Positions 5,900-55,703 of a DNA stretch of 64,000 bases are shown here, piece after piece; position 1 is the stretch's first letter, and every line of letters starts with the position of its first letter. A model generated the notes under the pieces. The model was not told where the DNA came from. It worked only from the letters and a program-made list of their open reading frames with translations, and searched no databases. The stretch is from Dehalococcoidia bacterium (lineage in GTDB: Bacteria > Chloroflexota > Dehalococcoidia > Bin125), in assembly GCA_965203775.1 (NCBI GenBank), contig OZ241913.1, forward strand, positions 1,081,390 through 1,145,389, in the 5' to 3' direction. The translations under genes and the position numbers were made by a program.

Positions 5900-6800
5900 T
5901 GTTCACACTAATCACGCCCTCCACCCCTCCCTCCGTCATTCCTGCGCAGGCAGGAACCCAGGCGACCACCAGCGCCTGCGCTCGCCACCGGTATCTCGCC
6001 ACGCCCACCACCCCCCCAACACCCACCCCTTCCCCAATTCATCCCTCCCCCCTTCCAGGGGGGAGGTGAGGAGGGGGGTGGGCAGCCACGCCAACGCACC
6101 AAGCGCACCCAGCCCCAATCCCGACGCCACCCCTCCGTCGCACCCGCCCCAACCGTCATACCCCCGCCCCCTCTGTCACTCCTGCGCCCTCTTCCGTCAT
6201 TCCTGCGCAGGCAGGAACCCAGGCGACCACCAGCGCCTGCGCTCGCCACCGGTATCTCGTCACGCCCACCACCCAGCCAACACCCACCCCTTCCCCAATT
6301 CATCCCTCCCCCCTACTAGGGGGGAGGTGAGGAGGGGGGTGGGCAGCCACAAGCCAACGCACCAAACGCGCCCTGCCCCGATCCCTACCCCACACCTCCA
6401 TCGCCCCCGCCCCAACCGTCATACCCGCGCCCCTCTGTCACTCCTGCGCCCCCCTCCGTCATTCCTGCGCAGGCAGGAACCACGCGACCCCCAACCTACC
6501 CCCAAATCCACCCCCCACACGCATCCCTCCTCACACCCCCCAACACCCACCCCTTCCCCAATTCATCCCTCCCCCCCTACCAGGGGGGAGGTGAGGTGGG
6601 GGGTGAGAAGCCACGAGCCAACGCCCCAAGCGCACCCAGCCCCAATCCCTACGCCACACCTCCATCGCCCCCGCCCCCTCCGTCATCCTTGCACCTCCTC
6701 CGCCGCACCCGCCCCCTTCCGTCATTCCTGCCCCCTCCGTCATTCCTGCGCCCCCTTCGTCATTCCTGCGCAGGCAGGAACGGAAGGAAAGAGCGCAAAC
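5900..6800. repeat. tandem triplication (about 260 bp unit) of composite REP-like element (module A + module B)
   Basis: Three near-identical units starting near 5930, 6190 and 6450. Each holds GTCATTCCTGCGCAGGCAGGAAC and CCCTTCCCCAATTCATCCCTCCCCCC..GGGGGGAGGTGAGG. Confidence 0.9.
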
Positions 6801-11976: not shown

Positions 11977-13000
11977 TCATTCCTGCGCAGGCAGGAATGT
12001 GGAGTCAGCTTGCAAATGCAACAGTTGGTTGTGGAGCACTTCGGCGGGGGTCTGGTAGTCGAGGCACTTGCGGGGGGTGTTGTTGGCGGCGCGGATGACG
12101 GCGTGGAGCGCGGCGGCGGAGAGCGCGTTGAGGTCGGTGTTGCGGTGCAGGCGGCGGCGCAGCCGGCCGATCGCGTTCTCCACGCCGCCCTTCTGCCAGG
12201 GCGAATGCGGGTCGCAGAAGAACGTCTCGATGCCCAGGTCGTGGAGCCGGTGATGGCGGACGAACTCGGAGCCGTTGTCGAAGGTCGCGCTGCGCCGGAG
12301 GGCCGGCGGGAGGCGCCGGAACAGCCCGCGCAGGACGCGGCTGAGCAGCTCGGCGGCCTTGCTCGGCAGAGCCGCGGCGAGCAGCGCGCGGGAGCGGCGC
12401 TCCTGCAGCACGAGCAGCGGCGGGCGCCCCTGGCCGAAGCTCATCAGGTCCACCTCCCAGTGGCCGTAGACCAGCCGCGCGTCGGCCTCGGGCGGGCGCT
12501 CGCTGAGCGGGCGGCGCTCCTGCAGGTAATCGGTCGAGCCGCGCGCGCCGCGCGTGCGGCTGTAGCCGCGCTTGACCCGCCCGCGGGGCAGATAGCGGGC
12601 GAAGCGGTAGTCCTTGGTGCGGGCGATCTGGGCGTGGATGAAGCGGTAGATGCTCTCGGGCGAGATCACATGCCGCCCGGCTTCGCGTTTGAGCCGTCCG
12701 GCGACCTGCTGGGGCGAGAGGCCGGCGGCGAGCATGTTCAGCACCTGCTCGCGCAGTTCGGCGTCGCGCTCCAGCCGCAAGCCGCGGAAGCCCAGTCATG
12801 CAGTGGGCGCGGGTTTGCTGCTGGGCGTAGTCCGGGTCGTAGCCGCCGTCGGCGCGCGCGTTGCGCTTCAACTCTCGAGTAATCGTCGCTGGCGCGCGAT
12901 CCAGAGTTGCCGCGATTTGCCGCGCGGAGCGGCCCTCGGCGTGTAGTCGGGCCAGCCGCCAGCGCTCCTCGCGGCTGAGCTGCGTGTGCGTTCGGGCCAT
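11977..13000 (-). pseudogene. IS30-family transposase, frameshifted (HTH N-terminus in one frame, DDE core in another)
   Basis: N-terminal MARTHTQLSREERWRLARLHAEGRSARQIAATLDRAPATITRELKRN in frame 12005..13000. DDE core (HWEVDLM, FDNGSEF, CDPHSPWQKGGVENAIGRLRR) in frame 11977..12780. Frames switch near 12780-12800. Confidence 0.7.
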
Positions 13001-13440
13001 CGCTCCACCTCCAACATCCGTTGCACCCCAAGCGCCAACTTAGCGAACCCAGACGACTCCAGGGCCGTTCACGCTAAGCGCGCCCACCACCCGCCCCTTC
13101 CCCAATTCATCCCTCCCCCCTTCCAGGGGGGAGGTTAGGTGGGGGGTGGGAGGCCCCGAGTGTCCACCAGCGGCCGAGCCGCAGCCCGCACCCTCCAAGA
13201 CGCATCCACACTCCCTTCACCCCCGCGCCCCTCTTCCGCCACCCCCGCGCCCCCCTCTCCGTCATTCCTGCGCAGGCAGGAACCACCCACCCCCTTCCCC
13301 AATTCATCCCTCCCCCCTTTTAGGGGGGAGGTTAGGTGGGGGGTGGGAGGCCCCGAGCGTCCACCAGCGGCCGAGCGGCAGCCCGCGCCCTCCAAGGCGC
13401 ATCCACACCCCCGCTCCCCCCAGCTATCACACAGGCGCCC

Positions 13441-13522
13441 CACTGGTGTAAAGTGACAACCGTGAACCACACCGCCAACCTCCCGACCGCCGCCCAACGC
13501 GCCCGCCGCGCGGCAGCGGCGC
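13441..13522 (+). promoter_or_regulatory. conserved leader (about 80 bp) shared by the three RCC1-like genes, candidate -10 TAAAGT
   Basis: Near-identical to 34347-34431. Related to 48741-48821 (TGGTGTAGAGT variant). Confidence 0.35.
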
Positions 13523-15310
13523 TTGCCCGATCGGGGGGGGGGGGGGGATAAATTCCTCCCGATCGCCCTAGCGATCGCCGCGCTCCTACTCGCCGCCCTG
13601 ACCCTCGCTCAAGCCGCCACGCCCACCTCAACCAGCCGCTACCTCGCGCTCGACGCCGGCGGCGAGCATCAATGCACGCTCCGAGCCGACGGCGCAATCC
13701 GCTGCTGGGGCGGCAACTCCGCCGAGCTGCGCGATGTTCCGGAGGGGCGCTACGCCGCCGTCAGCGCCGGGGCTTGGCACAACTGCGCAATTCGGCGGGG
13801 GAGCGGGGCGGTCGTCTGTTGGGGCGGCGACTCGAACGCGCCTGACGGCGCGTTCAGCGAGATCGCCGTCGGCTGGCAGTTCGCCTGCGGCGTGCGCGAA
13901 ACGGGCGAGCTTGAGTGCTGGGGAACCAGCAGCTTCGGCCGCAGCGTGCTCGACTACGGGCAGGCCGAGCCGCCGGAGGGGGAGTTCAGCGCGGTTAGCG
14001 CGGGCTATCTGCACGCCTGCGGGCTGCGGACGACGGGAGAAGTTGCCTGTTGGGGGCGCGCCAACCTTGGGCGCACTGATGCGCCCGAGGGAGTCTTCAC
14101 GCAGGTGAGCGCGGGCACGACGCACTCCTGCGCGCTGCGCGAGAGTGGCGCGGTGGAGTGCTGGGGTCTGAACAACTTCGGGCAGTTGGATGCGCCGTCG
14201 GGCGTCTTCACTCAAGTGAGCGCCGGCGCGTGGCACTCCTGCGGGTTGCGCGAATCGGGGGTCATCGAATGCTGGGGGGATGATCGCTATGGGCAGTCCA
14301 ACGCCCCGTCCGGGCGCTACCTCGCTGTGAGCGCGGGAACGCGCCATTCCTGCGCCCTAAGCCGCGCGAGTGCTCGCTGCTGGGGCGGGCAGGATGATCG
14401 CCTGCTCGAGCTGATCGCGGGGCTCTCCCCGACAAGCGCCCCCCGGACCGTCGCTGCTCCCTCAATCCCTGATGAGGACGGCGCAACACCGGACCCGCCG
14501 ACGCCCACGCCGACATCCACGACATTCACCGCTGTCAGCGCGGGCGGGCGGCACACTTGCGCTTTGAAGAGCACCGGGGCGATCGACTGCTGGGGCGCGA
14601 ACGCATACGGCCAGAGCACGGATCCGACGGGCACATTCACCGCCGTCAGCGCGGGCATTTGGCATACTTGCGCCGTGACCAGCGCAGGTACGATCTCCTG
14701 CTGGGGGTTGAGCACGGAGCAACGGACCAACGCGCCGTCGGGCAGCTTTACGGCGGTCGGAGCCGGCGACCAACACAGCTGCGGCCTGCGCAGCACCGGG
14801 GCGGTCGAATGCTGGGGCAACAATCTGCATGGGCAAAGCAACGATCCGACAGGCAGCTTTACAGCGATCAGCGTCGGCACGAATCACAGCTGCGGCCTGC
14901 TGAGCAGCGGCGCGCTCTCGTGTTGGGGGCACAGCGGCAGCAATCGGCTCAACGCGCCGTCGGGCAGCTTCAGCGCGGTCAGCGCCGGCGGGCAGCACAG
15001 TTGCGCCATCACCAGTGCCGGCGCAATCGACTGCTGGGGGTACGGTGCCAACGGGCGAGCCGATGACCAGAGCGGCAATTTCAGCGTGGTGAGCGTGGGC
15101 GACGGGCACAGCTGCGCCGTGACTAGCGCGGGAGCGATCTCGTGCTGGGGACTGGATACTCGGCGCCAAGTGCGCGATGCGCCCTCCTCAGGCACGTTCA
15201 CGGCGGTCAGCGCGGGCCTCGATCACACCTGCGGCATCAAGGCCGACGGCACGATCTCCTGTTGGGGCCGAAACATCGAAGACCAGGCACCGGCGACGCG
15301 CTCGCCCTGA
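13523..15310 (+). CDS. secreted RCC1/BLIP-II-like repeat protein (two beta-propeller domains joined by a PT-rich linker), paralog 1. G15 tract at 13533-13547 inside codons 5-9
   Basis: TTG start. MPDRGGGGDK then signal-peptide-like IALAIAALLLAALTLAQA. Repeated CWG..G(Q/R)...P.G.F..VSAG..H.C motifs about every 50 aa. Confidence 0.7.
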   Translation: MPDRGGGGDKFLPIALAIAALLLAALTLAQAATPTSTSRYLALDAGGEHQCTLRADGAIRCWGGNSAELRDVPEGRYAAVSAGAWHNCAIRRGSGAVVCWGGDSNAPDGAFSEIAVGWQFACGVRETGELECWGTSSFGRSVLDYGQAEPPEGEFSAVSAGYLHACGLRTTGEVACWGRANLGRTDAPEGVFTQVSAGTTHSCALRESGAVECWGLNNFGQLDAPSGVFTQVSAGAWHSCGLRESGVIECWGDDRYGQSNAPSGRYLAVSAGTRHSCALSRASARCWGGQDDRLLELIAGLSPTSAPRTVAAPSIPDEDGATPDPPTPTPTSTTFTAVSAGGRHTCALKSTGAIDCWGANAYGQSTDPTGTFTAVSAGIWHTCAVTSAGTISCWGLSTEQRTNAPSGSFTAVGAGDQHSCGLRSTGAVECWGNNLHGQSNDPTGSFTAISVGTNHSCGLLSSGALSCWGHSGSNRLNAPSGSFSAVSAGGQHSCAITSAGAIDCWGYGANGRADDQSGNFSVVSVGDGHSCAVTSAGAISCWGLDTRRQVRDAPSSGTFTAVSAGLDHTCGIKADGTISCWGRNIEDQAPATRSP

Positions 15311-24527: not shown

Positions 24528-24681
24528 CCCCCCAACCATCATTCCTGCGCAGGCAGGAACCCGCGCCCCCTCTCCGTCATTCCTGCGCAGGCAGGAACCT
24601 GCCACCCCCTCCCGTCATTCCTGCGCAGGCAGGAACCCGCGCCCCCTCTCCGTCATTCCTGCGCAGGCAGGAACCCACGCC

Positions 24682-32599: not shown

Positions 32600-32989
32600 C
32601 CGAGCATACGCAGCGCCCGCACCCCACCCGTCATTCCTGCGCAGGCAGGAACCCACGCCTCCCTCTCCGTCATTCCTGCGCAGGCAGGAACCGCACCCCC
32701 TCTCCGTCATTCCCGCGCTCCTCCTCCGTCATTCCTGCGCAGGCAGGAACCCACCCACCCCACCACCCACCCCTTCCCCAATTCATCCCTCCCCCCTTTT
32801 AGGGGGGAGGTTAGGAGGGGGGTGGAAAGCCCCGAGCGTCCACCAGCGGCCGAGCGCGGCAACCCGCACCCACCAAGACGCATCCACACTCCCTTCACCC
32901 TCGCGCCTCCTCTCCGTCATTCCTGCGCAGGCAGGAACCCTCCCACCCCACCACCCACCCCTTCCCCAATTCATCCCTCCCCCCTTTTA
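32600..32989. repeat. composite REP-like array (modules A and B). The last module B is interrupted by the IS5-family insertion
   Basis: Sequence match to other arrays. Confidence 0.85.
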
Positions 32990-34177
32990 GAGACCTTTGA
33001 AAAAGTCGGCTGGCGGGGTTGTTGGGGGCGTTTTAGGGCGCGGGATGGCGCGGTTGGGGCCTTGCGCGGGGGGTTCGGGCGGGTGTTTTTGGGGCTGCGC
33101 GGGCGGGTTGGGCGCACTGCGCCCGGCGGCGGCGAGGCTTAGACTGCGGCCTGCAGCCGCACGAGTTTGCGCAGGTTGAAGGCGAGGCATTTGAGGTAGA
33201 ACTCGAAGCGGTTGCGCTCCAGGCTGTAGTAGCGCGTGGTGCGGTAGCCGTAGCTGCGTTTGAACGTGCCGAAGACCGGCTCGACCTTGCGTCTGGTTCG
33301 CTCCCAGAGCGCGTTCAGTTCGCGCTCCGCCTCCGTCAGCGGGTGGTAGCGGTCGGCCCGTCTGAGGATGCGGCAGTCGATCCGCATCGCCTCCAGCAGT
33401 GCGCGCCGCTCGGCCTTGTCGTAGGCGCGGTCGGCGTGCACCGCCGCCTCGTCGCCGGTCAGCAGCGCCTCGGCGACCTGCGACTCGTTGACGTTGGCCG
33501 GGGTGAAGACGCCGCGGCGGATCAGTTGGGTGTCGGCGTCGACCCCGATGTGGCCTTTGTAGCCGTAGCAGGCGTTCCCGCGGGCGCCGCCCCAGGCGGC
33601 GTCCGGGTCGGTCGGCCCCTGGGCCGACTTGGAGCGCCGCCGCGAGGCCTGCGCCTCGATCAGCGTGGCGTCCATCAGCGTCGCGCGGCCCGGCTCGATG
33701 AACAGCCCCTGCGCCTCCAACTGCTCGTCCAACTCGCGCAGCAGCGCCTCGCCCAGCCCGCGCTGCGCGAACAGCGCGCGGTAACGGCTGATCGTGGAGT
33801 GATCGGGGATCTCCTCGCAGAGGCTCAGCCCCGCGAAGCGGCAGAACGAGGCGCGCTCCCAGAGCATGTCCTCCATCGCCGGGTCGGACAGGTCGCGCCA
33901 CTGCTGCAGCAGACAGATTTTGAGCATGACCAGCGCCGGGTAGGCCTTGCGGCCCATCCGCGAGCCGTGCAGCCCGGCCAGCAGCCGCGCGAAGCGCGTC
34001 CAGTCAATCGCCGCGTGGATCGCCTCCAACTGCGCGTTGCGCCCGCGACGCTCCGGTATCTGCGCCTCGCCGAACGACCCCTGCCTGCGCTCACGCTCCA
34101 TGCCGCACCCCTTTCGCGTCCAACCCACCGCGTTCCCCACAAGAATCGCCGATCCCCCAGAGTTGTGCAAAGGTCTC
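32990..34177 (-). mobile_element. IS5-family insertion sequence (1188 bp) with 10-bp terminal inverted repeats GAGACCTTTG and 5-bp target-site duplication TTTTA
   Basis: Left end GAGACCTTTGAAAAAG, right end CAAAGGTCTC. Flanking TTTTA at 32985-32989 and 34178-34182. Removing the element restores an intact module-B repeat CCCCCCTTTTAGGGGGG. Confidence 0.8.
33139..34170 (-). CDS. IS5-family DDE transposase
   Basis: YGYKGHIGVDADTQLIRRGVFTPANVNESQ ... VEPVFGTFKRSYGY ... FYLKCLAFNLRKL, typical of the IS5 group. Confidence 0.8.
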   Translation of the reverse strand: MHNSGGSAILVGNAVGWTRKGCGMERERRQGSFGEAQIPERRGRNAQLEAIHAAIDWTRFARLLAGLHGSRMGRKAYPALVMLKICLLQQWRDLSDPAMEDMLWERASFCRFAGLSLCEEIPDHSTISRYRALFAQRGLGEALLRELDEQLEAQGLFIEPGRATLMDATLIEAQASRRRSKSAQGPTDPDAAWGGARGNACYGYKGHIGVDADTQLIRRGVFTPANVNESQVAEALLTGDEAAVHADRAYDKAERRALLEAMRIDCRILRRADRYHPLTEAERELNALWERTRRKVEPVFGTFKRSYGYRTTRYYSLERNRFEFYLKCLAFNLRKLVRLQAAV

Positions 34178-34431
34178 TTTTAGGGGGGAGGTTAGGTGGG
34201 GGGTGAGAGGCCCCGAGCGTCCACCAGCGGCCGAGCGCGACAACCCGCACCCTCCAAGACGCATCCACACTCCCGTCATTCCTGCCTCCCCACCGTCATT
34301 CCTGCGCAGGCAGGAACCCGCGACGAGCGCAGCTATGACGAAGGCGCCCCACTGGTGTAAAGTGACAACCGTGAACCACACCGCCAACCCCCAAACCACC
34401 GCCCAACGCGCCGGCCGCGCGTTGGCGGCGC

Positions 34432-36249
34432 TTACCCGATCGGGGGGGGGGGGGGGATAAATTCCTCCCGATCGCCCTCGCGATCGCCGCGCTCCTGCTC
34501 GCCGCCCTGACCCTTGCCCAGGCCGCCACGCCCACCTCAACCAGCCGCTACCTCGCGCTGGACGCCGGCGGCGAGCACCAATGCACCCTCCGCGCCGACG
34601 GCGTGATTCGCTGCTGGGGCGGCAACTCATCCGAGCTGCGCGATGTTCCGGAGGGGCGCTACGCGGCGGTCGGTGCCGGGGCGTGGCACAACTGCGCGAT
34701 TCGGCGGGGGAGCGGGGATGTCGTCTGCTGGGGCGGAGACTCGAACGCGCCTGACGGCGCGTTCGTTGATGTGGCCGCAGGCTGGCAGTTCGCCTGCGGC
34801 GTGCGCGAGGCAGGCGAGCTTGAGTGCTGGGGAACCAGCAGCTTCGGGCGCAGCGTGCTCGACTACGGCCAAGCGGAGCCGCCCGATGGCGAATTCAGCG
34901 CGGTTAGCGCCGGCTACCTGCACGCCTGCGGACTGCAAACGACAGGCGAAATCACCTGTTGGGGCCGCGCCAACCTCGGACGCACCAACGCGCCATCAGG
35001 CACTTTCACCCAAGTAAGCGCCGGCACCACGCACAGCTGCGCCCTGCGCGAAACCGGCGCAGCCGAATGCTGGGGCCTCAACAACTTCGGCCAGATGGAC
35101 GCTCCCTCAGGCGTCTTCACCCAAATCAGCGCCGGAGCCTGGCACAGCTGCGGGTTGCGCGAATCAGGCGCAATCGAATGCTGGGGCGACGACCGCTACG
35201 GCCAGTCCAACGCCCCATCCGGGCGCTACCTCGCCGTGAGCGCGGGAATGCGCCACTCCTGCGCCCTAAGCCGCGCGGGCACGCGCTGCTGGGGCGGGCA
35301 GGACGATCGCCTGCCTGAGCTGATTGTGGAGCTCGCGCCGGCAAGCAGCACCCGGACCGTCGCGGCTCCCTCAAGCGGCGACGAAAGCGATACGACGCCG
35401 GACCCTGTGACGCCCACGCCGACACCAACACCGACTCCGCCGACGACGACCTTCACCACGCTGAGCGCGGGCGACTATCACAACTGCGCGCGACGCAGCA
35501 CGGGCACGATCGACTGCTGGGGCAGTAACACAAACGGTCAGAGCGCCGATCCCTCCGGCAGCAGCTTCACGACAGCCAGCGCGGGCACCTCGCAGAGCTG
35601 CGGGCTGACCAGCGCCGGTGCGCTCTCCTGCTGGGGGCTGAGCACTACGCGTCCGACCACGGCGCAGGCGCAATCCAGCACGTTCACCGCGGTTGACGCC
35701 GGCGGGGTTGTCTGCGCCGTGCGCAGCGCGGGCACGCTCGCCTGCTGGGGGACGGCCGCCTATGGCGAAGACACGCCACCGACGGGCAGCAGCTTTACGG
35801 CGGTGAGCGTGGGCGACGAGCACGCCTGTGCGCTGAGCAGCGCGGGCGCCATCTCCTGTTGGGGTCGAAGCGCCAATGGGCGGACGACGGTTACGGCTGG
35901 CACGTATACGGCCGTGAGCGCGGGCGGGTTCCATAGCTGCGGGCTGACCAGCACGGGCGCGATCGTCTGCTGGGGCTGGAATGGCTACGGTCAGAGCGCC
36001 GCGCAAACGGGGACATTCACGGCGGTCAGCGCGGGCTGGGGGCACACCTGCGGCCTGCGCAGCACGGGCGCGATCGAGTGCTGGGGTCGGAGCAGCGCCC
36101 ACCCGACCACGGCGCAGGGGCAATCGAGCACGTTCACGGCGGTCGCGGCAGGCCGCGATCACACCTGCGGGCTGAAGAGCGACGGCACGATCGCCTGCTG
36201 GGGCAGCAACGCGAGCGGGCAAGCGCCGACGGCGGGCGTGTCGCCGTAG
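34432..36249 (+). CDS. RCC1-like double beta-propeller secreted protein, paralog 2. Canonical TTG start replaced by TTA; G15 tract at 34442-34456; first usable in-frame start GTG at 34603
   Basis: The frame is open from 34432 and encodes the same signal peptide as paralogs 1 and 3, but the track ORF starts at 34603 because no start codon remains upstream. Confidence 0.55.
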   Translation, partial: LPDRGGGGDKFLPIALAIAALLLAALTLAQAATPTSTSRYLALDAGGEHQCTLRADGVIRCWGGNSSELRDVPEGRYAAVGAGAWHNCAIRRGSGDVVCWGGDSNAPDGAFVDVAAGWQFACGVREAGELECWGTSSFGRSVLDYGQAEPPDGEFSAVSAGYLHACGLQTTGEITCWGRANLGRTNAPSGTFTQVSAGTTHSCALRETGAAECWGLNNFGQMDAPSGVFTQISAGAWHSCGLRESGAIECWGDDRYGQSNAPSGRYLAVSAGMRHSCALSRAGTRCWGGQDDRLPELIVELAPASSTRTVAAPSSGDESDTTPDPVTPTPTPTPTPPTTTFTTLSAGDYHNCARRSTGTIDCWGSNTNGQSADPSGSSFTTASAGTSQSCGLTSAGALSCWGLSTTRPTTAQAQSSTFTAVDAGGVVCAVRSAGTLACWGTAAYGEDTPPTGSSFTAVSVGDEHACALSSAGAISCWGRSANGRTTVTAGTYTAVSAGGFHSCGLTSTGAIVCWGWNGYGQSAAQTGTFTAVSAGWGHTCGLRSTGAIECWGRSSAHPTTAQGQSSTFTAVAAGRDHTCGLKSDGTIACWGSNASGQAPTAGVSP

Positions 36250-40189: not shown

Positions 40190-41100
40190 TAGGGGCTTTA
40201 GAGGTTGTGCCGCCCCCCGTCACCCCCGCGCCCTCTCCCCGTCATTCCCGCACCCCCTCTCCGACATTCCTGCGCCCCCTCTCCGTCATTCCTGCGCAGG
40301 CAGGAACCCGCAACCTCCCAATCCCCGCCTCACCTCCCCTCTTCCCCAATTCATCCCTCCCCCCTTCCAGGGGGGAGGTTAGGTGGGGGGTGGAACGCCG
40401 CGAGCGCACACCAGTCACGCCCCGCCCCGAAAATCACCCACGCCACCCGCCCCCCCGTCATTCCCGCGCCCGCCCTCCCGTCATCCCCGCGCCTCTCCCG
40501 TCATTCCTGCGCCCCCTCTCCGTCATTCCTGCGCAGGCAGGAACCCGCAACCTCCCACCCCCCGCCTCACCTCCCCTCTTCCCCAATTCATCCCTCCCCC
40601 CTTCCAGGGGGGAGGTGAGGTGGGGGGTGGAACGCCGCGAGCGCACACCAGTCACGCCCCGCCCCGAAATCACCCACGCCACCCACCCCCCGTCATTCCC
40701 GCGCCCGCCCTCCCGTCATCCCCGCACCCCCTCTCCGACATTCCTGCGTCCCTCTTCCGTCATTCCTGCGCAGGCAGGAACCCACCCGCGCCCACCCCCC
40801 ACCTCACCTCCCCTCTTCCCCAATTCATCCCTCCCCCCTCCCAGGGGGGAGGTTAGGTGGGGGGTGGGACGTTGCGAGCGACTACCAGCGATCGTTCGCG
40901 CCCCACTCGCCCACGCTGCGCCTCGACCGCCACGCTGCCATCTCATCCACCGTCATTCCTGCGCAGGCAGGAATCCAGCGCGCCTGCGCTCCATTCCGTC
41001 ATTCCTGCGCAGGCAGGAACCCGCGCCCTCCTCCCCGTCATTCAGGCCACTCTCTTTCCGTCATTCCTGCGCAGGCAGGAACCACCCCACACCCCCACTT
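40190..41100. repeat. composite REP-like array (3-4 A+B units)
   Basis: Repeated units near 40250-40400, 40490-40640, 40730-40870, 40940-41090. Confidence 0.9.
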
Positions 41101-48711: not shown

Positions 48712-48740
48712 GGAGGCGAAAGCGCCGCCGCAAGCTGTGC

Positions 48741-48821
48741 GCTGGTGTAGAGTTTCACTCATGCGACGCGACTCCCACACCCCGACCACCCTCCAACGCG
48801 CCTGCCGCGCGTTGGCGGCGC
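48741..48821 (+). promoter_or_regulatory. leader of RCC1-like paralog 3 (related to 13441-13522)
   Basis: Shares the ...CAACGCGCC.GCCGCGCG(TT/GC)GGCGGCGCTTGCCCGATCGG 3' half with the other two leaders. Confidence 0.3.
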
Positions 48822-50642
48822 TTGCCCGATCGGGGGGGGGGGGGGGGGGATAAATTCCTCCCGATCGCCCTCGCGATCGCCGCACTCCTGCTCGCCGCTC
48901 TGACCCTCGCCCAAGCCGCCACCCCCACCTCAACCAGCCGCTACCTGGCGCTCGACGCGGGCGGCGAGCATCAATGCACCCTCCGCGCCGACGGAGTCAT
49001 CCGCTGCTGGGGCGGCAATCAGGCAGATCTGCGCAACATCCCCGACGGCCGCTACAGCGCCATCAGCGCCGGCGCATGGCACAACTGCGCCATCCGCCAG
49101 GGCAGCGGCGAAATCGCCTGCTGGGGCGCAGATCAGAACGCGCCTGACGGCGCGTTCAGCGAGATCGCCGTCGGCTGGCAGTTCGCCTGCGCCATCCGCG
49201 CGAGCGACAGCGAGCTCGAATGCTGGGGAACCAACAGCTTCGGCCGCAGCGTTCTCGACTACGGCCAAGCCGACCCGCCCAACGGCGAGTTCACCTCCGT
49301 GAGCGCCGGCTACCTCCACGCCTGCGGACTACAAACGACAGGCGAAATCACCTGTTGGGGCCGCGACAACCTCGGACGCACCGACGCGCCTGAGGGCGTC
49401 TTCACACAGGTAAGCGCCGGCACCACGCACAGCTGCGCCATCCGCGAAAACGGCGCAGCCGAGTGTTGGGGCCTCAACAACTTCGGGCAGTTGGACGCCC
49501 CCTCAGGAGCCTTCACTCAAATCAGCGCGGGCGCATGGCATAGCTGCGGATTGCGCGAATCAGGCGCAATCGAGTGCTGGGGAGATGACCGCTACGGGCA
49601 GTCCAACGCTCCATCCGGGCGCTATGTCGCTGTGAGCGCAGGAATGCGCCACTCATGCGCGCTCAGCAGCGAGCGCGCTCGCTGCTGGGGCGGTCAGGAT
49701 GATCGCCTGCCTGAGCTGATCGCGGAGCTCGCCCCAACGAGCGCCACCCGGACCGTCGCGGATAGTTCGGCTGAGGACGAAAGCGACACAACGCCGGACC
49801 CTGTGGCGCCCACACCAACCCCCACGCCGACACCGACACCGACGACTACTTTCACCACGCTGAGCGCGGGCCAGTATCACACCTGCGCGCGGCGCAGCAC
49901 GGGGACGATCGACTGCTGGGGACAAAACACATACGGCCAGGACGCCGATCCCTCCGGCAGCAGCTTCACGGCGGTCAGCGCGGGCATTACTCAGAGCTGC
50001 GCGCTGACCAGCGCGGGCGCGCTCTCCTGTTGGGGGCGAAGCGTTAACCGTCCCACCACAACCCAGGCGCAATCCAGCACGTTCACAGCGGTCGCCGCCG
50101 GCGGGGTTGTCTGCGCCGTCCGCAGCGCGGGCACGCTCGCCTGTTGGGGGGCGACCGCCTACGGCCAAAACAACCCGCCTTCGGGCAGCAGCTTCACGGC
50201 GGTGAGCGTGGGCCATGATCACGCTTGCGCGCTGAGCAGCGCGGGGACGATCTCCTGCTGGGGTCGGAACAACAGCGGACAGCGAGATGTTACAGCCGGC
50301 ACCTACACGGCCGTCAGCGCGGGTGGGGTTCATACCTGCGGGTTGACCAGCACGGGCGCGATCGTCTGTTGGGGTTGGAACGCCTTGGGCCAGACCGACG
50401 CGCAGACGGGCACGTTCACGGCGGTCAGCGCGGGCTGGGGGCATACCTGTGGTTTGCGCAGCACGGGCACGATCGAGTGCTGGGGCAACAACGCGAACGG
50501 GCAAAGCACGGTCACTGCAGGTACGTACACGGCAGTCGCGGCAGGGCGCGAGCACACCTGCGGGTTGAAGACCGACGGCGCGATTGCCTGCTGGGGCAGT
50601 AACGCGAGCGGGCAAGCGCCGTCCACAGGCGTGTCGCCCTGA
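48822..50642 (+). CDS. RCC1-like double beta-propeller secreted protein, paralog 3. G18 tract at 48832-48849
   Basis: TTG start, MPDRGGGGGDKFLPIALAIAALLLAALTLAQA, two CWG-repeat propellers joined by a PTPTPTPTPTP linker. Confidence 0.7.
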   Translation: MPDRGGGGGDKFLPIALAIAALLLAALTLAQAATPTSTSRYLALDAGGEHQCTLRADGVIRCWGGNQADLRNIPDGRYSAISAGAWHNCAIRQGSGEIACWGADQNAPDGAFSEIAVGWQFACAIRASDSELECWGTNSFGRSVLDYGQADPPNGEFTSVSAGYLHACGLQTTGEITCWGRDNLGRTDAPEGVFTQVSAGTTHSCAIRENGAAECWGLNNFGQLDAPSGAFTQISAGAWHSCGLRESGAIECWGDDRYGQSNAPSGRYVAVSAGMRHSCALSSERARCWGGQDDRLPELIAELAPTSATRTVADSSAEDESDTTPDPVAPTPTPTPTPTPTTTFTTLSAGQYHTCARRSTGTIDCWGQNTYGQDADPSGSSFTAVSAGITQSCALTSAGALSCWGRSVNRPTTTQAQSSTFTAVAAGGVVCAVRSAGTLACWGATAYGQNNPPSGSSFTAVSVGHDHACALSSAGTISCWGRNNSGQRDVTAGTYTAVSAGGVHTCGLTSTGAIVCWGWNALGQTDAQTGTFTAVSAGWGHTCGLRSTGTIECWGNNANGQSTVTAGTYTAVAAGREHTCGLKTDGAIACWGSNASGQAPSTGVSP

Positions 50643-54034: not shown

Positions 54035-55703
<1,669 letters not shown>

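Follow-up and report, generated by a model that had tools for sequence, protein, structure and literature searches.

Contingency loci built on homopolymeric tracts are textbook features of Neisseria, Haemophilus, Campylobacter, and Helicobacter. In Neisseria, a homo-G tract in the signal-peptide region of pilC and CTCTT repeats in the leader-peptide coding region of opa turn a surface protein on and off by frameshift (PMC5354566). For the "phasome" of Campylobacter jejuni and Helicobacter pylori, intragenic poly-G tracts are described as concentrated in surface-structure and restriction-modification genes (PMC6321876). In another setting, a TANNNT motif about 12 bp before the start codon has been published as a signature of leaderless genes and was also detected in Chloroflexi (PMC3160421). 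Here, we analyze a stretch of 64,000 nucleotides (nt) from a Dehalococcoidia bacterium (Chloroflexota; contig OZ241913.1, positions 1,081,390 to 1,145,389, assembly GCA_965203775.1), referred to below as the window. It carries three paralogous genes for RCC1-repeat propeller proteins, each headed by a conserved leader and a long poly-G tract, as well as a DNA methyltransferase gene with a fourth long tract. A preliminary description had drawn attention to the leader but overlooked what we regard as its main point, namely that the tract probably acts as a frame switch. Full-text literature searches returned no report of homopolymer contingency loci in Chloroflexota or sponge-type symbionts.

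Between the -10 region and the tract, the leader copies (Table 1) align without gaps. Copies 1 and 2 match at 83 of 92 positions, and copy 3 matches copy 1 at 68 and copy 2 at 70 of the 92, with 85–91% identity in the 3′ half and 61–63% in the 5′ half. These values bear out the earlier statement that copies 1 and 2 are near-identical and that copy 3 shares the 3′ half. The repeat reported then is real, but its coordinates needed adjustment: the start given for copy 2 (34347) was 3 nt early, and the block extends 10 nt beyond the earlier ends. All three copies lie directly 5′ of a poly-G tract (15, 15, and 18 G) and an RCC1_2 gene, and the pattern CTGGTGTARAGT-N7-RTG occurs three times in the window, against a chance expectation of 0.01. 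The module thus reads, in order, -10 box, 6–7 nt, GTG or ATG, 71 nt, poly-G tract, signal peptide, and RCC1-repeat propeller, with the post-tract ATAAATTCCTCCCGATCGCC forming the opening of the signal-peptide-like sequence.

Runs of G in the window number 24 of length 5, 35 of length 6, and one of length 7, after which come only the four of 14, 15, 15, and 18; the longest C run is 8. All four long tracts are situated in the 5′ part of open reading frames (ORFs). In the RCC1 module, a tract of n = 2 mod 3 lets the ORF that begins at the GTG or ATG continue into the signal peptide and the propeller, whereas one extra G makes it stop at a TAA right after the tract and one fewer leads to a stop 17 codons later. 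Among 28 scored alleles, four are in frame (G17, G20, G20, and G20), 14 are one G long, and about 10 are one G short. The ORFs that follow the tract are nevertheless intact in all phases (444–605 aa), and every out-of-frame allele with sufficient downstream sequence gives an ORF of 471–632 aa upon a one-G change. If translation begins at the GTG or ATG, all three window copies would be off, each being one G too long. The locus therefore combines the properties by which simple sequence repeat (SSR) contingency loci are recognized: a long repeat, a position inside the ORF and 3′ of the (presumed) start, length polymorphism, and intact out-of-frame alleles.

Tract length differs between strains at fixed loci. 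At the copy-3 locus, whose flanks are 97–100% identical, the tract has 18 G in the window, 15 in sister allele L098, 16 in L101, L103, L105, and L106 (long-contig alleles), and 20 in L102; short Illumina scaffolds have G15 and G16. The G20 tract of L102 is in frame, and the public annotation calls a 627-aa gene there from the ATG. Phase 1, in which neither the GTG/ATG nor an alternative TTG is in frame, is the commonest at this locus. At the copy-1 locus, the window has 15 G and the sisters 15, 15, and 16. A divergent relative (L104, positions 12823-12834 of Illumina scaffold PANK22-1_SAMN12291322 scaffold_688) has the same architecture in a different sequence, TAGGGT, 7 nt, GTG, 73 nt, G12, and CGTAAACCGCTC, and its tract is again one G too long. 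Length polymorphism at fixed loci is thus shown, and switching within a population is predicted.

To gauge the size of the family, a genome collection was scanned with the query CCGATC+G12. The scan returned 15 loci, all in one record, OZ241849.1 (a Dehalococcoidia bacterium metagenome-assembled genome with a 3.31 Mb chromosome), and all with the module before an RCC1 gene. Together with two further members of variant flanks in the same record (GATTC+G15, L006; CTCGATC+G16, L103), this gives at least 17 family members in OZ241849.1, which is 95–99.6% identical to the window and represents a different strain. Exact-protein look-ups located the same module in four more sister assemblies and in several short Illumina scaffolds; other look-ups of this kind found nothing. 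A Joint Genome Institute (JGI) metagenome scan for the leader gave only four chance matches. As the loci were fished using the tract, tract-less members may be missed; every family 5′ end in the sequences examined has one. The leader and the G tract had been described as a conserved 5′ unit, and this unit indeed heads every visible family member: the three window copies, the 17 or more paralogs of OZ241849.1, and additional ones from the four sister assemblies. In a stack of 17 paralogs, similarity sets in abruptly at CTGGTGTA(A/G)AGT (13443 in copy 1) and from there on is about 0.8, which is the level of the gene body. The leader would thus simply be where the duplicated gene unit begins. A search on the sample prefix PANK22 yielded nothing relevant to habitat, and co-retrieved assemblies of like naming style that come from sponge-type taxa give no more than a hint of host association. 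Two other homopolymers were seen in the sister sequences. One is a C13 (+ strand; L092, positions 24-36; OZ241849.1, about 5.9 kb upstream of the copy-1 locus tract) that does not belong to the RCC1 family and is flanked by Bac_luciferase and DinB_2 genes, and the other is a G10 in DNA rich in repetitive extragenic palindromic (REP) units (L100).

Both promoter boxes were identified visually in the stack of paralogs. The hexamer TA(A/G)AGT is found in every allele bar the divergent L104 (TAGGGT), and the TAAAGT/TAGAGT put forward previously is accordingly a credible -10 box. Most of the 17 stacked paralogs have (T)ATGACG or ATCACA 17 nt upstream of it, as part of an inverted REP unit, GGAATGACGG. 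This -35-like box is weak (4/6 matches, under the scanner threshold), and a sigma-70 consensus scan found no site at ≥9/12 matches. The -10 box is 6–7 nt from an [AG]TG that is invariant in all ~33 alleles read and stands 71–73 nt ahead of the tract; no Shine-Dalgarno (SD) sequence precedes it, and the spacing is that of a leaderless-mRNA box. Because the -10 box sits so close to the invariant GTG/ATG, the "leader" is most likely the start of the ORF, with transcription probably beginning at or beside the GTG/ATG to give a leaderless mRNA.

What follows the start codon evolves quite differently on the two sides of the tract. The 33 columns after the [AG]TG have 19 pairwise differences per column, versus 20 for the third codon positions of the adjacent signal peptide. 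Upstream of the tract, paralog differences by codon position are 366/321/310, without codon periodicity in any frame, and the 3′ half of the leader is better conserved at the nucleotide level than the 5′ half. The peptide sequence of codons 2–24 appears to be essentially unconstrained. In the signal peptide, the corresponding differences are 46/48/380, pointing to strong purifying selection on the protein, and in the gene body they are 698/573/2386. Purifying selection on the protein thus seems to begin only after the tract, and the third-position bias downstream of it argues for functional rather than decaying genes. Counts of stop codons per frame offered too few independent events to be informative.

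The three window genes match RCC1_2 (PF13540) with E values of 1e-85 to 1e-93 and encode proteins of ~600 aa with 8–12 repeats. The closest solved chain is the extracellular propeller domain of the plant ACR4/CRINKLY4 protein (2e-20), a likeness that fits the two cysteines per blade. Judging from the signal peptide, the propellers are probably secreted. In a protein database search with frame-corrected copy 3, the best matches were ~40% identical and included no close family member whose N-terminus could be compared.

The fourth long tract lies in a gene for a DNA methyltransferase fused to an Mrr-type nuclease domain. In a sister strain (L082, ~2935; 98.5% identity over 7.3 kb), the same site has G8 between identical local flanks, so that this gene, too, has an SSR of polymorphic length (G8 versus G14) within a DNA methyltransferase ORF, as in phasevarions. 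The two alleles share the same frame offset of +1. Another sister genome, ctg394347, lacks the methyltransferase and has an 87-aa AF2212-like ORF at its position. The neighboring genes are metabolic, and the methyltransferase has no paralogs in the window. It appears to be a second gene class with the same kind of switch. Phase variation classically affects both kinds of gene, those for Cys-rich propellers of extracellular type that carry a signal peptide and those for methyltransferases of restriction-modification systems.

Table 1. Positions in the window of the three leader–tract–propeller modules, the methyltransferase gene, and the elements upstream of copies 1 and 2.
Feature	Position	Strand	Basis or remark
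Copy 1
Leader (-10 region to tract)	13441-13532
-35-like hexamer ATCACA	13426-13431	+	17 nt before the -10 box; read from sequence
-10 box TAAAGT	13449-13454	+	Conserved across alleles
GTG start codon	13462-13464	+	Probably the 5′ end of a leaderless mRNA
Codons 2–24 of the long ORF (signal-peptide n-region)	13465-13532	+	Frame open in all alleles
In-frame TTG (n = 0 mod 3)	13523-13525	+	ORF listing; no SD before it
Poly-G tract, 15 G	13533-13547	+	One G above the length that joins the GTG ORF to the body
TAA closing the 29-codon GTG ORF when the tract is one G long	13549-13551	+	Translation
Rest of signal peptide, DKFLPIALAIAALLLAALTLAQA	13547-13615	+	Translation; AQA|A cleavage-type motif, then ATP
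RCC1-repeat secreted propeller gene (predicted), body after tract	13547-15310	+	PF13540 RCC1_2 6e-93, PF25390
Copy 2
Leader (-10 region to tract)	34350-34441
-35-like equivalent ATGACG	34335-34340	+	Read from sequence; copy 3 has none
-10 box TAAAGT	34358-34363	+	Conserved across alleles
GTG start codon	34371-34373	+	Conserved position
Codons 2–24 of the long ORF	34374-34441	+	Frame open in all alleles
TTA in place of TTG	34432-34434	+	Read from sequence
Poly-G tract, 15 G	34442-34456	+	One G too long; without TTG, so no canonical in-frame start here
RCC1-repeat gene	34456-36249	+	PF13540
Copy 3
Leader (-10 region to tract)	48740-48831
-10 box TAGAGT	48748-48753	+	Conserved across alleles
ATG start codon	48761-48763	+	The diverged copy retains the start as ATG
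Codons 2–24 of the long ORF	48764-48831	+	Frame open in all alleles
Alternative TTG	48822-48824	+	ORF listing
Poly-G tract, 18 G	48832-48849	+	One G too long
RCC1-repeat gene	48849-50642	+	PF13540
Other features
DNA methyltransferase (N6_N4_Mtase PF01555 + Mrr_cat)	54035-55703	+	Split by G14 (54290-54303); frames, Pfam
131-nt REP-type repeat, upstream of copy 1	13094-13224
131-nt REP-type repeat, upstream of copy 1	13291-13421
131-nt REP-type repeat, upstream of copy 2	34151-34281
Transposase ORF near copy 1	12005-13000		HTH_38
Transposase ORF near copy 2	33139-34170		DDE_Tnp_1/DUF772
Insertion near copy 1	11998-13238		Missing at the orthologous OZ241849.1 locus
Insertion near copy 2	32941-34181		Missing at the orthologous OZ241849.1 locus

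We consider slipped-strand phase variation of leaderless propeller genes, combined with recombination between paralogs, to be the probable explanation of these data. According to this model, each RCC1-repeat gene would be driven by its own promoter, in which the TAAAGT/TAGAGT -10 box is paired with a weak -35 box that comes from a REP unit. Translation from the GTG/ATG would produce 24 loosely constrained, arginine-rich codons, the glycines of the poly-G tract, the hydrophobic core of the signal peptide, and the propeller. A tract of 12–20 G would be long enough for slippage during replication, and only n = 2 mod 3 would join the two halves of the gene. Each paralog could then toggle independently and heritably, so that a cell would display a changing subset of at least 17 secreted or surface proteins. 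As a second layer, recombination between paralogs would replace what lies downstream of mid-leader, gene body included, the near-invariant block of leader 3′ half, tract, and signal peptide likely serving as the upstream homology arm.

Several observations weigh against this model. Few alleles (4/28) are in frame, and tracts of 15 G are over-represented. Each of the four window tracts exceeds its in-frame length by exactly one G. Coincidence, selection for the OFF state, or a systematic homopolymer error could account for this, and the phase calls rest on homopolymer lengths of 12–20 nt, which are error-prone, in assemblies of unverified read technology. We lean toward biology rather than systematic error as the source of the +1, because the G8 allele of the methyltransferase has this offset too. 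Differences in length between strains mostly accompany sequence changes in the gene body and are then not pure slippage, the methyltransferase being the exception. The 23 codons between start and tract have no third-position excess, which would fit a 5′ untranslated region (UTR) as well as an unconstrained peptide. Finally, most window genes carry a GGAGG-type SD, and leaderless initiation at GTG would be an exception among them.

In a competing view, the 71 nt represent a genuine 5′ UTR, and translation starts at a TTG 10 nt before the tract, with n = 0 mod 3 being the ON phase. The window would thus have copies 1 and 3 switched on, whereas copy 2 would be a start-codon mutant. In a variant of this view, both starts are used and a gene has three states (long form, short form, and off), much as H. 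influenzae lic1 has alternative ATGs in two frames. The lack of codon periodicity upstream of the tract agrees with it, the nucleotide-level conservation of the leader 3′ half is what a translation-initiation region would be expected to show, n = 0 mod 3 is the commonest phase (14/28), and some public gene calls start at the TTG (595 and 602 aa). These automatic calls vary between TTG (595, 602 aa), ATG (627 aa), and internal codons (455–592 aa), and are decided only by tract phase (L098, L101-L105; L090-L092). Against this view, 11 of ~33 alleles have TTA or TCA at the site of the TTG while their ORFs of 444–605 aa are otherwise intact, and the TTG has no usable SD, as the GGCGG nearby ends 3 nt before it. 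None of the window genes with an SD at their first candidate start begins with TTG; they use SD plus ATG or GTG. The commonest phase at the copy-3 locus is 1 rather than 0, and an [AG]TG kept invariant at a fixed distance from the -10 box would be left unexplained. On account of the lost TTGs, the missing SD, the contrast with SD-led genes, and the copy-3 phase, we prefer the GTG/ATG as the probable start and regard initiation at the TTG, or at both starts, as unlikely, though worth keeping in mind. A start downstream of the tract, with the tract itself serving as SD, was also considered and rejected: the ATA and ATT after the tract are out of frame, and use of the in-frame ATC, at a distance of 14 nt, would deprive the signal peptide of its n-region.

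A second competing view holds that RNA polymerase, the ribosome, or both slip on the 12–20 G, so that all alleles would be expressed constitutively at a low level, with non-heritable heterogeneity and no on/off switch. On a run of G, as is generally known, re-pairing of tRNA-Gly is possible in every frame, and the tracts exceed the length of an RNA:DNA hybrid. The preservation of intact out-of-frame alleles would follow naturally, as would the +1 phase of the methyltransferase in two strains despite G8 versus G14. Such slippage would, however, leave unexplained why tract length varies between strains over all three phases, and it is compatible with switching at the DNA level rather than exclusive of it. 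With GGG making up 26% of Gly codons and thus not being rare, there is no obvious "hungry codon" pause, and we rejected a rare-codon basis for ribosomal slippage. Expressional slippage as the whole account strikes us as distinctly unlikely. Switching through promoter spacing, of the porA or fim type, was rejected as well, given that the tract is 71 nt downstream of a conserved -10 box and start codon. The sole hexamer pair flanking the tract, TTGCCC-tract-TAAATT, would have a spacer of 17–25 nt, mostly ≥20, whereas a promoter calls for 16–18 nt.

Comparison of the same loci between strains revealed mosaic alleles, with flanks that are 97–100% identical around gene bodies that are 50–90% identical. 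At the copy-3 locus, four sister strains match the window at ~100% up to ~48781, a stretch that takes in the -10 box and, from the ATG on, seven codons. Identity then falls to ~0.9 in the rest of the leader, 0.7–0.9 in the first half of the gene, and 0.4–0.7 in the second half. At the copy-2 locus, it is ~88–97% through the leader, drops over the length of the gene from ~85% to 60%, and is again 98–100% from ~75 nt after the stop. This collapse between conserved flanks suggests that alleles were replaced or converted between paralogs, with the upstream break inside the leader. The family had been proposed to spread or recombine as a unit; it does recombine, but the exchange leaves out the promoter and the leader's 5′ half. 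An arrangement of the pilE/pilS type, in which one expression site is fed by promoterless silent cassettes, was rejected, as a -10 box, a start codon, and a tract are present in all copies.

Such mosaicism could also mean that the tract acts mainly at the DNA level, where, as a G-quadruplex (G4) or an initiator of recombination, it would promote gene conversion among the paralogs in the way of the pilE-upstream G4 of Neisseria, and that its effects on frame are secondary. As a matter of general knowledge, ≥15 G can in principle form a three-tetrad G4, and identity collapses ~50 nt before the tract. Silent cassettes are missing, however, each copy having its own promoter and start, and the methyltransferase has a like tract but no window paralogs. 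We give this view a slim chance.

The preliminary description had suggested testing the leader for RNA structure, and an untranslated, structured cis-regulatory element common to the paralogs (riboswitch, attenuator, or thermosensor) was considered accordingly. The region is GC-rich, and RNAalifold draws hairpins in it, including a pairing of the G tract with CCUCCC. Yet for 15 leaders the covariation term is +0.63 kcal/mol, with one of 34 pairs compensatory, a single-sequence fold has a minimum free energy z-score of -0.6 versus shuffles, and an Rfam scan found nothing overlapping the leader, the only hits being sub-threshold miRNA models on the upstream REP palindrome. The 5′ half evolves at a neutral rate. 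The GGTGT…ACACC inverted repeat pointed out earlier does exist in copies 1 and 2, but other members have CACGCC, CACGGT, or CGCATT instead. With the -10 box 6–7 nt from the invariant GTG/ATG in addition, a structured RNA leader is very improbable. That the tracts are assembly artefacts or the genes decaying pseudogenes is scarcely credible, even though long homopolymers are error-prone and the four window tracts share the same +1, because tracts with conserved flanks recur in at least six assemblies, Illumina scaffolds included, the ORFs are intact with a strong third-position bias, and the short G8 methyltransferase allele is out of frame too.

The DNA upstream of the modules is rich in repeats. 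REP-type repeats and transposase ORFs are located upstream of copies 1 and 2 as previously claimed (Table 1). The insertion sequence (IS) elements do not belong to the unit, contrary to what had been supposed: both insertions are missing at the orthologous OZ241849.1 loci and therefore appear to be recent and strain-specific. Both landed in REP-rich DNA just upstream of an RCC1 promoter. The 131-nt repeat has 13 copies in the window, with the palindromic core CCCCCCTT(TT/CC)AGGGGGGAGGTTAGGTGGGGGGTGGGAGG, and gives weak, sub-threshold matches to miRNA models, as a hairpin. A shorter REP-like unit, CCGTCATTCCTGCGCAGGCAGGAAC, with the internal palindrome TTCCTGC…GCAGGAA, is present in at least 39 window copies (for example, 5932-5958, 24529-24675, 32627-32750, and 40282-41080), often intergenic and in tandem with ~38-nt spacing. 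An inverted copy of this unit supplies the -35-like box of many RCC1 promoters. In form, it resembles the dRS3-type repeat of Neisseria, ATTCCC-N8-GGGAAT. Adjoining the copy-2 locus, the segment 27311-28784 is inverted and relocated relative to OZ241849.1 (L019), which suggests rearrangement between strains around family loci.

If the switch is real, the RCC1-repeat family would be an interface that is varied under fluctuating selection, and tract-length spectra from existing long-read data would give a direct handle on that selection. More tentatively, the organism may run a two-layer system of surface variation, in which at least 17 phase-variable propellers exchange their bodies via the leader–tract–signal block, possibly aided by G4 formation, with the methyltransferase as an addition. 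Such a system would imply strong fluctuating selection on exposed proteins, exerted, for example, by a host, phages, or grazers, and would resemble those of obligate host-associated pathogens, in a phylum for which we found no such report. There is also a consequence for annotation: depending on tract phase, the family is inconsistently called from three types of start, and its members may be mis-scored as pseudogenes or truncated genes.

Overall, we regard the locus as a probable contingency locus of a known kind that is unusual in its phylum, protein family, tract length, and family size. Like Neisseria pilC and opa, it has a presumably hypermutable repeat between the start codon and the mature protein, within the region coding for the signal peptide. 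The parallel with opa goes further: there are many paralogs, every one with a promoter and a repeat to itself, the majority would be in the OFF state, and recombination reshuffles the alleles as well. Unlike both, it occurs in uncultured Dehalococcoidia, encodes an RCC1/CRINKLY4-type fold, has 12–20 G and at least 17 members, is probably leaderless, and is known from sequence alone. The proposed start resembles the leaderless genes of Actinobacteria, Deinococcus-Thermus, and Chloroflexi (PMC3160421) in having TA(A/G)AGT 6–7 nt before GTG/ATG and no SD; it differs from those groups in that leaderless genes seem to be a minority in the window, and the transcription start site is deduced here from the position of the box. 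As in phasevarions, an SSR that is polymorphic between strains (G8 versus G14) lies in an N6/N4 methyltransferase ORF; unlike in phasevarions, the methyltransferase is fused to an Mrr-type nuclease domain and both observed alleles are out of frame. The presence of poly-G in a methyltransferase as well recalls the C. jejuni and H. pylori phasome. The tracts of those two species are usually 8–13 G long and belong to AT-rich genomes, whereas those described here have 12–20 G, lie in a 69% GC genome, and are mostly confined to one paralogous family.

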